Of a DNA stretch of 64,000 nucleotides, positions 7,660 through 10,671 are shown piece after piece. A model generated the notes under the pieces. The model saw only the letters and a list, made by a program, of their open reading frames with translations. It was not told the origin of the DNA and made no database searches. How positions within the stretch are numbered: position 1 is the first letter of the stretch; each line of letters opens with the position of its first letter. Made by a program: the position numbers and the translations under genes. Origin of the DNA: Candidatus Omnitrophota bacterium (lineage in GTDB: Bacteria > Omnitrophota > Gorgyraeia > Gygaellales > Profunditerraquicolaceae); NCBI GenBank assembly GCA_028716245.1, contig JAQUQW010000001.1:40793-104792 (forward strand). The letters run 5' to 3'.

Positions 7660-8070
7660 ATGAATAGAAAAGGTTTTACACTCGTCGAAATCATGATCGT
7701 TGTGGCAATTATCGCCTTGTTAGCTGCGATCGCAGTCCCCAACTTGCTTAGCGCAAGAAGGACGGCTAATGAAGCAGCAGCCAAAGCTACAGTACGCAGC
7801 TTATCTACCGCGGCTGAAACATTCTCAACCAGCCATAGCGGCGCATATCCTACAGATATATTAGGAGCCGGTAACTTGCAAGATTTTATAGCTTCTGCAG
7901 GTAGCTATTGCGCTAACGCAACTGGTACAGCGACTGCTGTGCAGGGTTATAACTACGCCTGTACTTTAACCTCGGGCGGTTATACCTTTGTAGCCAGTCC
8001 TGTTACACCAGGAACGACCGGAAACGTAACCTACACAGCTTCAACTGGTGGAGTGCTGACACCATTATAA
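7660..8070 (+). CDS. pilA: Type IV pilin (major prepilin) with a Ser/Thr/Gly-rich C-terminal half
   Basis: The N-terminus MNRKGFTLVEIMIVVAIIALLAAIAVPNL gives the class III signal G|FTLVE plus a hydrophobic helix. It is followed by a strong terminator. Confidence 0.85.
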   Translation: MNRKGFTLVEIMIVVAIIALLAAIAVPNLLSARRTANEAAAKATVRSLSTAAETFSTSHSGAYPTDILGAGNLQDFIASAGSYCANATGTATAVQGYNYACTLTSGGYTFVASPVTPGTTGNVTYTASTGGVLTPL

Positions 8071-8092
8071 AAAGTTGTTTTTTGAAAATCAA

Positions 8093-8153
8093 GGGGACGG
8101 TTCTATTTTTTAACAAGAATGATCGACAAAAAATAGAACCGTCCCCTAGTTTT
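8093..8153 (+). terminator. Rho-independent terminator after pilA
   Basis: 19 bp perfect stem GGGGACGGTTCTATTTTTT / AAAAAATAGAACCGTCCCC, a 16 nt loop and then TAGTTTTT. Confidence 0.8.
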
Positions 8154-8155
8154 TA

Positions 8156-10096
8156 ATGAAAATCAAATTTTTTGTTTTTATTCTAATAGCAGTTATATGT
8201 TTCCTTGCCTATTTTAATTCTTTAGCTAATCCGTTTATCTGGGATGATCAGGCTCTGGTGGTTCAGAACACGCTGATCCGCAGCGCGCGGAATTTGCCTT
8301 TAAGTTTTACCAATGACCTGTATTTTGGAGTAGCCAGCGGCTCTAATTTTTACCGTCCCCTGCAAACCATATCGTATATCTTCGATTATCATTTCTGGCA
8401 GTTGGATCCCTTTGGTTATCATCTTACCAACATTATTTTACAGCTTGGTGTTTCTTTTTTAGTTTTTCTTTTAGTATCTGAACTACTTGGTGATTTAGCG
8501 GTAAGTATCGCTGCCGCAGCGATGTTTGCCGCCAGTCCTTTGCATACCGAGGCAATAACTTATATTTCAGGAAGAGCAGAGATGCTGATGGGTTTTTTTG
8601 TAATCCTGGCATTATTATTTTTTATCAGGAGCCAGAAAAAAACTATCCAGGGCAGCCGGTTATTTTATATCTTTTCACTATCCAGTTTTGTCTTCGCCAT
8701 CTTATCCAAAGAAGTGGCGATTGTTTTTCCTTTTATAGTGAGCGGTTATGTTTTTTACTTTTTAAGGGATAAATTAAAAGAAAAATATTATCTTATAAAA
8801 AATGTTATGCCGTTTTTTATTATCAGCATAATCTATCTAATTTTGAGGTTATCTTTTTTTAAATTTTTAACTCTGCGGCCGCCGGCTTTGGCCGCTGTCC
8901 CCTGGTTTGTTCGCTTGAGTGTTTTATCCAAAGTAATCCTTACCTATTTTAAACTGCTTGTTTTACCGGTTAACTTGCACATGAACCATGAGTTGTTGCG
9001 GCCGACAAGTATCGCCGGCATCCTGATTGCTGTTTTTTCTCTGGGGGCAATCCTTTTTACCTGCTTGTATTATTTAAAGTACCAACCAAAGAACAAGGTG
9101 GCTTCGTTTATGTTGTTCTGGTCACTGGTTTTTTTTATTCCGCAATCCGGAATTTTTCCAATCAATGCTTTTGTCGCCGAACATTTTATCTATTTATCTT
9201 CAATTAGCTTTTTCATGCTTTTAGCGTATATTTTGCATAAAGCCCTAAGAAGGGAAATTTTTATTTTAAGTACGGGATTATTTTGCGTGTTCTATATTTT
9301 GCTTACCTGCGGCCGTAATTTTGAATGGAAAAACCCGTTGGTTTTTTACAAAAACATCATCAAATATTCTCCTGACAGCTTCCAGGCGCATAATAATTTG
9401 GGCCTGGAATATGAATACCGGGGCAGGCTTGATGAGGCAAGACTTGAATATAAGCGGGCATTAGAAATTAAACCGGATTTAATCGAAGGGCGTTCGAATT
9501 TAGCCAACCTTTATTTTAAATTGAAACTTTATGCTCCGGCAAAGGCAGAATACGAACTGCTTGAGAAAAGCCCGCTGGGCTCAAAAGCGGGCGAAGTGCA
9601 GAATAACCTGGGTAATATTTATGAGGTTACCGGCAACCCGGAGGGGGCAATCGCAAAATATAATCAGGCGTTAAAACTTGACCACAGCCTGAAGTTTACA
9701 CACTTTAATCTGGCGCGGATTTATTTTGCCAAGAGAGACTTTAATTCCGCGGCAGCCCAGATAGCGGAATCTCTGGGCGAGGTTGCGGGTAAGGCTGATT
9801 TGGCCCGGAATAAAATCATCGCGGATTTCCTTAAAAGCGCCGGTTATCTTGATAATGGTGCGGAGTTCTATAATAATTTAGGGATTGATTTTGCCAAAAA
9901 TAATTATTGGGCGGGAGCAGTCAGTGCCTTTAACTGCGCTTTGGAGCTAAGGCCTGATTTTGCCGATTGTTACTATAATCTGGGATTGGCCTATCTGAAT
10001 ATGGGTGAAAAATCCCGGGCCAAAAAGGTTTTAAAGCAGGCCTTAAAAATCAATCCTAATCATATCCGGGCCAAGAGGTTAATCGCAGTGAATTAA
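8156..10096 (+). CDS. TMTC-like GT-C family membrane glycosyltransferase homolog with C-terminal TPR repeats
   Basis: 646 aa. About 11 predicted TM segments with an N-terminal loop motif FIWDDQALVVQN (DD motif of PMT/TMTC-type GT-C). The C-terminal region of about 240 aa holds TPR-like repeats (NNLGLEYEYRGRLDEA..., YYNLGLAYLNMGE). Confidence 0.55.
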   Translation: MKIKFFVFILIAVICFLAYFNSLANPFIWDDQALVVQNTLIRSARNLPLSFTNDLYFGVASGSNFYRPLQTISYIFDYHFWQLDPFGYHLTNIILQLGVSFLVFLLVSELLGDLAVSIAAAAMFAASPLHTEAITYISGRAEMLMGFFVILALLFFIRSQKKTIQGSRLFYIFSLSSFVFAILSKEVAIVFPFIVSGYVFYFLRDKLKEKYYLIKNVMPFFIISIIYLILRLSFFKFLTLRPPALAAVPWFVRLSVLSKVILTYFKLLVLPVNLHMNHELLRPTSIAGILIAVFSLGAILFTCLYYLKYQPKNKVASFMLFWSLVFFIPQSGIFPINAFVAEHFIYLSSISFFMLLAYILHKALRREIFILSTGLFCVFYILLTCGRNFEWKNPLVFYKNIIKYSPDSFQAHNNLGLEYEYRGRLDEARLEYKRALEIKPDLIEGRSNLANLYFKLKLYAPAKAEYELLEKSPLGSKAGEVQNNLGNIYEVTGNPEGAIAKYNQALKLDHSLKFTHFNLARIYFAKRDFNSAAAQIAESLGEVAGKADLARNKIIADFLKSAGYLDNGAEFYNNLGIDFAKNNYWAGAVSAFNCALELRPDFADCYYNLGLAYLNMGEKSRAKKVLKQALKINPNHIRAKRLIAVN

Positions 10097-10116
10097 GAGA
10101 ATAAGGCCCAATACGC

Positions 10117-10162
10117 AATACGACCCTATTTCCTAGCCAATCGGGAAATAGGGTCGTATTGT
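10117..10162. repeat. Hairpin of the ACCCTATTTCC / GGAAATAGGGT family, downstream of the TMTC-like gene. Probably a terminator.
   Basis: CGACCCTATTTCC-tagccaatc-GGGAAATAGGGTCG. The arms match those of the elements at 2250 and 14945. Confidence 0.6.
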
Positions 10163-10257
10163 GATTAGGAAACAGGGTCTTTGTAAAAAATGATTGCCAA
10201 ATAGCTTCTTTATGGTAAGATTAAAATAATGTTCAAGCGTAAGTAAGGATTTTAACT

Positions 10258-10671
10258 ATGTTTAATCGAAAAGCCAGGAGTTTTGTTACGATCATGATCG
10301 TTGCGGCCTTGTCCGCGTTATTGCTGCGCCTGGCGGTACAGAAGATAATCATCTATAATATCGAGCATAACCAGTTATTGGCCCAGGTAAACCTTAAACT
10401 TCTTTCCACGGGCTTAGAAAATTACGCCAAGAATAATAAGAATGTATATCCTACCAGCATTGAGCAGCTTACCAAAAGTAATCCGGTTTATCTGGAGAGG
10501 AATTATCTGGCCAGTTCTTCAATACGGGGTTATGAGTATGATTGCCAGCGGTTGGACGCATCCGGTTATAATTGTTCGGCAGTTCCGGTTGACTGCAAAC
10601 TTACCGGAAAGATGACTTATTCGGTTTCCACCGGAGGTTTGGTTCTTACGGAGAGCTGTGATAAAAAATAG
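10258..10671 (+). CDS. Pilin-like protein with a degenerate prepilin N-terminus (paralog of PilA)
   Basis: The N-terminus MFNRKARSFVTIMIVAALSALLL has hydrophobic helix signal but Ser in place of Gly at the cleavage site and no Glu5. The C-terminus TYSVSTGGLVLTESC resembles the PilA C-terminus TYTASTGGVLTPL. Confidence 0.5.
   Translation: MFNRKARSFVTIMIVAALSALLLRLAVQKIIIYNIEHNQLLAQVNLKLLSTGLENYAKNNKNVYPTSIEQLTKSNPVYLERNYLASSSIRGYEYDCQRLDASGYNCSAVPVDCKLTGKMTYSVSTGGLVLTESCDKK

Follow-up and report, generated by a model that had tools for sequence, protein, structure and literature searches.

Which function does a large membrane protein have whose gene lies directly behind the gene for the major pilin in a type IV pilus operon? 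This question is raised by a stretch of 64,000 nucleotides from a Candidatus Omnitrophota bacterium (termed the window here), in which a gene at 8156-10096 encodes a membrane protein of 646 amino acids. The gene is preceded by pilA (7660-8070), encoding the major type IV pilin of 136 amino acids, and followed by pilA2 (10258-10671), encoding a non-canonical pilin paralogue of 137 amino acids (the pilus genes, hairpins and promoter candidate described below all lie on the plus strand). The pilin, the membrane protein with its tetratricopeptide repeats (TPR) and the second pilin had been named in an earlier analysis of the letters alone (the sequence-only reading); all three were found at these coordinates, together with the sequence strings quoted for them. 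An NCBI protein from a metagenome-assembled genome (MAG), labelled just 'tetratricopeptide repeat protein', agrees with the 646-amino-acid protein at 100% identity. Our analysis makes the gene a likely candidate for a TfpW-type pilin O-glycosyltransferase, encoded by a cassette that Omnitrophota carry within their core pilus operon.

The membrane protein has a predicted GT-C fold

The open reading frame (ORF) at 8156-10096 was analyzed with Pfam and by fold search, which divided the protein into two parts. Residues 1-393 (8156-9334) form a predicted GT-C glycosyltransferase domain, identified by AlphaFold modelling, Foldseek and conservation. Residues 394-646 (9335-10096) form a predicted periplasmic domain of about seven TPR repeats, for which Pfam detects TPR_1, TPR_2 and TPR_11 at approximately 395-646 with E-values of 1e-27 to 2e-30 (TPR_2: 1.9e-30).

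Foldseek searches with the full-length model (predicted local distance difference test score, pLDDT, 87.7) returned TPR proteins only. To escape this domination by the repeats, the N-terminal domain was modelled separately (pLDDT 77.5) for the search of the PDB. All 26 top matches were GT-C enzymes, with a probability of 1.00 and best TM-scores of 0.51-0.57; ArnT (5ezm and 5f15) came first, followed by AglB, STT3, Pmt4, PglB, ALG9, DPY19 and EmbB. The helices of the model and the loop charges, with alternate loops being positively charged, predict 11 transmembrane (TM) helices and a cytoplasmic N-terminus, the helix at residues 250-269, within the fourth periplasmic loop, being taken for a juxtamembrane one like those of ArnT and TMTC. 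This topology places the DD motif, contained in residues 27-38 (FIWDDQALVVQN), in periplasmic loop 1 directly after TM1, and the TPR domain after TM11, which exits to the periplasm. The model shows D30-D31 and the other putative ligand motifs facing the periplasm.

A comparison of 94 homologues with 27-44% identity showed that Y19, D30, D31, R67, P68, P128, R231, Y264, P271, Y346 and W391 are invariant and that R140, E186, H275, P329, E342 and H343 are conserved in at least 90% of the same sequences. The putative catalytic and ligand motifs are W29-D30-D31 (the WDD being near-invariant), S63xxY66-R67-P68, R140xE142, K185-E186, H275, W322x6P329x5P335 and E342-H343xxY346. W322 and P329 are conserved across homologues, and the motif to which they belong resembles the proline motif of EmbC. 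The strongest conservation in the whole protein is that of the GT-C catalytic and ligand motifs rather than that of the TPR domain, and because of this conservation the enzyme machinery appears to be kept by selection.

The motifs were also compared with M1-M7 as defined for TMTC proteins (PMC7801869). Putative equivalents of six of the seven (M1, M2, M3, M4, M6 and M7) were recognised by position and conservation: the window protein has DD for DD, SNFYRP for SHKSYRP of TMTC, RAE for RxD, KE for KE and EHFIY for ERxxY, with a proline pair near TM9. M5 (DW) is absent from the window protein, which has a conserved LHM motif with H275 instead.

The sequence-only reading had described the protein as a TMTC/PMT-like GT-C enzyme with TPR repeats. 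Its architecture bears this out (11 TM helices, DD in loop 1, periplasmic TPR), but membership of the corresponding Pfam families does not: neither the window protein nor 13 orthologues match TMTC_DUF1736 (PF08409), and among ten distant relatives one reaches 17.8 bits against a cut-off of 27. Weak PMT matches (E-value 4e-6) were obtained for three of the 13 orthologues, and among the distant relatives some score above the gathering thresholds for PMT_2 (34 bits) and PMT (28 bits). A PMT enzyme proper (GT39, PF02366 plus MIR) was rejected, since the window protein has no PMT match and a Pfam scan found no MIR domain. Because the fold search, the motif conservation and the PMT and PMT_2 matches among relatives agree, we assign the 646-amino-acid protein, as modelled, to the inner-membrane GT-C enzymes. 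The best natural PDB matches of its TPR part are the TPR domains of OGT and SPINDLY, and the periplasmic repeats are proposed to be an acceptor-binding module.

A pilin gene precedes the transferase gene in close relatives

The sequence-only reading had proposed surveying the gene neighbourhoods of such proteins for pilin genes. We fetched 56 genome and 80 metagenome loci and binned the homologues by their phmmer bit score to the N-terminal domain of the window protein; a pilin gene was regarded as adjacent if it ended no more than 400 bp upstream on the same strand. A pilin gene lies directly upstream in 40 of the 42 homologues with at least 400 bits, in four of six with 250-400 bits and in 13 of 62 with less than 250 bits. 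The enrichment is thus found in close homologues and falls off in distant ones, and the idea behind the survey stands. We estimate the chance of a pilin gene being the upstream neighbour at well below 1%.

In several loci the arrangement is repeated (L042 5995-11516, L044 5989-12733, L037 3979-8067, L056 3728-10332). The pair seems to be duplicated or moved as a unit, because each of the repeated GT-C/TPR paralogues lies beside its own pilin gene. Pilin-adjacent relatives also occur beyond Omnitrophota, namely on a deltaproteobacterial contig (L056) and in a MAG labelled Pseudomonadota with relatives in Polyangiaceae (P0299). In the latter, two N_methyl genes precede the transferase gene, whose product shares 31% identity with the window protein across residues 11-154 (E-value 2e-19). 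Pilin adjacency thus genuinely characterises certain clades, but does not extend to the superfamily as a whole. Because this adjacency is so strong, and given the GT-C architecture, a module for pilin O-glycosylation, as suggested from the letters alone, is the best reading of the locus.

PilA is the proposed acceptor

PilA carries the prepilin motif KGFTLVE, matches N_methyl in Pfam (E-value 8e-9) and has a match to the prepilin domain in NCBIfam. Its C-terminal half had been described as rich in Ser, Thr and Gly, which the quoted sequence confirms. Ser and Thr together make up 22.8% of PilA, the highest value among 61 ORFs of the window (mean 10.6%, standard deviation 2.6%; z about +4.7). 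The Ser and Thr residues at positions 47-60 are conserved among 35 orthologues, and so are Ser and Thr residues near the C-terminus.

The pilA gene is preceded by a strong Shine-Dalgarno sequence (GGAAGGAGG). Further upstream, a consensus scan detected a sigma-70-like promoter candidate at 7484-7512 (TTGACA, a spacer of 17 nucleotides, TAAATT and an extended TG), a candidate by its consensus match alone (10 of 12 positions).

Hairpins flank the transferase gene

The stop codon of pilA ends at 8070 and the transferase gene starts at 8156. Folding of the intergenic RNA predicts an intrinsic terminator or attenuator at 8092-8154, consisting of a 20-bp stem (8092-8147) followed by TTTTT (8150-8154). 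The folded region (8071-8158) has a dG of -34.6 kcal/mol and a z-score of -8.0, and none of 200 shuffled sequences was as stable; a simple terminator scan missed the hairpin, the loop being too long. A hairpin with a z-score below -3 follows the pilA stop codon in 41 of 52 related loci. Its stem varies between loci (GGGAGAGA/TCTCTCCC, GGGGAGG/CCTCCCC, GGAGGAGA/TCTCCTCC), showing that the structure is conserved and the sequence is not. There is no obvious ribosome-binding site at the start of the transferase gene, which directly follows the terminator. Pilin-accessory cassettes are described as having, as a hallmark, a Rho-independent terminator behind the pilin gene that is believed to limit expression of the accessory gene (PMC11841053).

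A second hairpin with a 21-bp stem is predicted behind the transferase gene at 10114-10163 (folding of 10097-10180: dG -41.9 kcal/mol, z-score -8.5). It is not followed by a U-tract.

The architecture is that of TfpW

[quoted passage not shown] The enzyme is described as a GT-C protein of 646 amino acids with a cytoplasmic N-terminus, 11 predicted TM helices, a DDx motif in periplasmic loop 1 and, at the C-terminus, a sizeable TPR domain in the periplasm; its membrane part was best modelled on ArnT, and its C-terminal part best matched the TPR domain of OGT (bioRxiv 10.1101/2020.04.19.049825). Loss of TfpW or mutation of DDx abolishes pilin glycosylation, and homologues encoded behind pilA are found in Azotobacter, Acinetobacter, Teredinibacter, P. 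indica and Kingella (bioRxiv 10.1101/2020.04.19.049825; PMC11841053).

The window protein shares with TfpW the length of 646 amino acids, the 11 TM helices, the DDx motif in loop 1, the periplasmic TPR domain, the ArnT-like fold and the gene position behind pilA. A terminator behind the pilin gene is a further common feature. The analogy to pilA-tfpW had been drawn from gene order, which holds, but it is more than positional, as length, topology, DDx, TPR and fold are also shared. The accompanying remark that TMTC-like enzymes have not been established as pilin glycosylases no longer applies, as TfpW has this architecture and is required for pilin glycosylation. For the same reason, the architecture of the window protein is that of an already established type of pilin glycosyltransferase and represents no new class or mechanism.

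The two systems also differ. Near the last periplasmic loops the window protein has a related proline-rich motif of another pattern, Wx6Px5P as compared with Yx6PFx7P in TfpW. The Omnitrophota cassette forms part of the pilMNOPQ operon, occurs almost throughout its clade and is no strain-variable island. Finally, the cassette continues with a pilin paralogue lacking Gly-1 and Glu5, whereas tfpW is followed by the gene for TfpX, a protein with three TM helices.

TMTC1-4, the eukaryotic O-mannosyltransferases, likewise have 11 TM helices, a cytoplasmic N-terminus and an extracytoplasmic TPR domain, and have motifs with putative equivalents in the window protein, namely DD (M1), SxxYRP (M2), RxE/D (M3), KE (M4), the TM9 proline pair (M6) and E(R/H)xxY (M7). 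They differ from the window protein in the DUF1736 match and the DW of M5, which the window protein lacks and has replaced by LHM, respectively; in the donor, dolichyl-phosphate mannose as opposed to a predicted polyprenyl-phosphate sugar; and in the acceptor, cadherin as opposed to a predicted pilin. ArnT, the undecaprenyl-phosphate-L-Ara4N:lipid A transferase, is the closest solved fold (TM-score 0.51-0.55 over approximately 380 columns) and is also a periplasm-facing enzyme using a polyprenyl-phosphate sugar, but it is only 14% identical in sequence, lacks TPR repeats and acts on a lipid as acceptor. TfpO/PilO and PglL modify Ser or Thr of pilin in the periplasm from a lipid-linked donor, and the tfpO gene also follows pilA; their fold, however, is unrelated (Wzy_C, O-antigen ligase-like). 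An enzyme of this type was rejected here, since Pfam finds no Wzy_C or O-antigen ligase match.

PilA2 is an intact and conserved pilin paralogue

The gene following the transferase gene encodes PilA2, which is 33% identical to PilA (E-value 2e-18) and has no match in Pfam and NCBIfam scans. PilA2 and PilA have a C-terminal S-T-G-G segment in common. An uninterrupted PilA2 reading frame is present in 32 loci (among them L001 8118-8531 and L005 5705-6118), and in all of these the N-terminus reads (K/R)SF(V/I)xIM (RSFVTIM in the window): Ser replaces Gly-1 and Glu5 is absent. The paralogue had been called degenerate, but a frame that stays intact with a constant N-terminus is not decaying, and PilA2 is probably functional. 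Because Gly-1 and Glu5 are absent, the usual processing and polymerisation of pilins probably do not apply to it. A subunit without Glu5 is tolerated at the filament tip, as in GspK-type proteins, and by this analogy PilA2 may have a role in priming, at the tip or as an adaptor.

In most relatives another canonical pilin gene separates the transferase gene from pilA2 (L002 7984-8427, L004 8096-8539, L005 5259-5702), encoding about 141-143 amino acids after the motif. It is absent from the window and from the closest relative (L001), and the gap in the window (10097-10257) holds the 21-bp hairpin.

A model for pilin glycosylation by the cassette

We infer the catalysis, the donor, the acceptor with its sites and the biological role of the cassette as follows. 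The sugar would come from a polyprenyl-phosphate donor, which the transferase would use after the donor has been flipped to the periplasmic side of the membrane. The TPR domain would grip the globular head of PilA while the N-terminal helix still anchors the pilin in the inner membrane, and Ser and Thr hydroxyls of PilA would be glycosylated ahead of its assembly into the pilus. The leaky terminator behind pilA and the missing ribosome-binding site would keep the transferase far scarcer than the pilin. Possible payoffs of a pilin sugar are phage evasion, adhesion and filament stability.

Several observations weigh against a pilin glycosyltransferase of the TfpW type. The membrane domain (residues 1-407) has no Pfam match even at E-values up to 10, the NCBIfam matches of the 646-amino-acid protein are TPR models only, and a search of PDB sequences with the full-length protein yielded TPR chains and left the membrane domain unmatched; a profile of the orthologues found nothing among PDB sequences at E-values up to 10, and the Foldseek E-values of the N-terminal domain are modest (2e-3). 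The likeness of the window protein to TfpW (AAM52060.1) is drawn from the published description of the latter. In addition, 49 of the 62 distant homologues have no pilin neighbour, adjacency being limited to certain clades, and operon membership alone does not identify an acceptor. Genes for DprE1 and DprE2, which would provide the D-arabinofuranose used by TfpW, for a GtrA-like protein and for a phosphoribosyltransferase were not found among 57 ORFs of the window scanned with Pfam. Donor genes could be located in another part of the genome, or a different sugar could be used.

TfpW itself was also sought. A tblastn search of plasmids for TfpW returned a single match, in Haladaptatus, and protein searches seeded with the pilin-adjacent relatives of the proteobacterial type yielded Polyangiaceae and MAG proteins and no TfpW from Pseudomonas.

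Alternative explanations

The protein could be an active GT-C enzyme that travels with the pilus operon and has another acceptor: PilA2, minor pilins, PilQ, envelope proteins, or a glycan or lipid. The nearest solved fold, ArnT, modifies lipid A; the superfamily of the membrane domain is very large (71,495 cluster representatives at an E-value of 1e-3 or below) with distant members that are mostly not linked to pilins; and PilA2 ends in the same S-T-G-G segment as PilA. We nevertheless consider this explanation unlikely, since the gene lies directly behind the major pilin gene in almost all close relatives, pilin-transferase pairs are repeated, and a TPR domain, by comparison with TMTC, OGT and TfpW, argues for a protein as acceptor. 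It is PilA and not PilA2 that stands out in Ser and Thr content (22.8% compared with 15.3%).

Alternatively, the protein could be mainly a non-catalytic assembly factor, in which the TPR domain acts like the TPR lipoproteins PilF, PilW or Tgl in PilQ assembly, or as a pilin chaperone, and the membrane domain is an anchor. The repeats have sub-threshold similarity to the NCBIfam models PilW (64 bits) and Tgl (59 bits), one homologue is labelled 'Tfp pilus assembly protein PilF' by JGI, and no separate pilotin gene is visible beside pilQ in the window. However, the scores are far below the cut-offs of 154 and 225, respectively, and typical of generic TPR similarity, and a pilotin was rejected because the protein has 11 TM helices and lacks a lipoprotein signal. 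Furthermore, a mere anchor would not hold invariant DD, YRP, KE and EHxxY motifs at approximately 30% identity. A non-catalytic role is thus very improbable.

Least probable of all, and hardly to be credited, is that the adjacency is functionally meaningless synteny inherited within one phylum: the surveyed loci are indeed mostly from Omnitrophota and the search patterns favoured orthologues, but adjacency extends down to 25-40% identity and to contigs labelled Myxococcota or Pseudomonadota and a deltaproteobacterial contig with other neighbours, and the conserved terminator between both genes points to a regulated two-gene unit.

Neighbouring genes in the window

The cassette is followed at 10675-14926 by pilM, pilN, pilO, a pilP-like gene and the secretin gene pilQ, which encode the alignment and outer-membrane subcomplex of a type IVa pilus. 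They were identified with Pfam (PilM_2 1e-46, PilN 1e-6, PilO 2e-6, Secretin 4e-42), and their synteny is kept in most related loci. The 'symbiotic' F-type ATPase reported beside pilus clusters of Omnitrophota is absent from this window.

Upstream of pilA, a gene encoding a Fic domain (Pfam Fic, E-value 3e-21) is located at 6722-7456, between a cupin gene and pilA. No counterpart was found in any related locus examined; in L004-L006, L064 and L072 only about 200 bp separate an ABC-cupin gene pair from pilA. The Fic gene appears to be an insertion specific to this lineage.

The window further contains a large cluster of nucleotide-sugar and polysaccharide genes at about 27-64 kb, and nothing ties it to the cassette. 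At the boundary between housekeeping genes and this cluster lies an IS200-like (Y1_Tnp) transposase gene (26192-26878). The cluster region encodes a GT2 protein of 327 amino acids with several C-terminal TM helices (38933-39916), which is a candidate for a polyprenyl-phosphate sugar synthase able to supply a periplasmic GT-C enzyme, again with nothing that ties it to the cassette. A protein of 864 amino acids from the same cluster (49569-52163) begins with many hydrophobic helices, continues with a large soluble part and ends with a TM helix. It is without a Pfam match at an E-value of 1e-5 or below and may be a further membrane glycosyltransferase of large size or else a polymerase. Three genes for B12-binding radical SAM proteins (39913-41418, 43773-45182 and 57353-59320) are interleaved with glycosyltransferase and nucleotide-sugar genes, which suggests an unusual modification, possibly methylation, of the sugars in the glycan made by this cluster.

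Implications for Omnitrophota and the GT-C/TPR superfamily

The main genome survey of Omnitrophota discusses type IVa pili and does not mention a glycosyltransferase (PMC10066038). With the cassette described here, the probable range of the TfpW type widens to include Omnitrophota and, judging from gene context, Myxococcota-like lineages. To our knowledge, this type has so far been described only in Proteobacteria. At the same time, the pilin-linked proteins group in specific clades within a very large and largely uncharacterised bacterial superfamily of 'TMTC-like' GT-C/TPR proteins, and a substrate is predicted for one of these clades.

A more far-reaching version, which we regard as speculative and rather unlikely, is that in Omnitrophota pilin glycosylation has become a fixed, obligatory step of the type IVa pathway with PilA2 as a dedicated partner, so that pilA, the transferase gene and pilA2 form a distinct maturation module ahead of pilMNOPQ. 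Within that version, PilA2, which probably cannot be cleaved, could be an adaptor anchored in the membrane that presents PilA to the enzyme, or a priming or tip subunit. The conserved PilA2 partner is part of the value of the more modest finding of a TfpW-type transferase as well.

Omnitrophota are ultra-small, possibly host-dependent bacteria, and type IV pili are thought to mediate their attachment to host or prey. A probable glycosylation gene in the core pilus operon suggests that the pili of Omnitrophota are normally sugar-coated, which bears on adhesion, on phage resistance and on claims of conductive pili in these bacteria.

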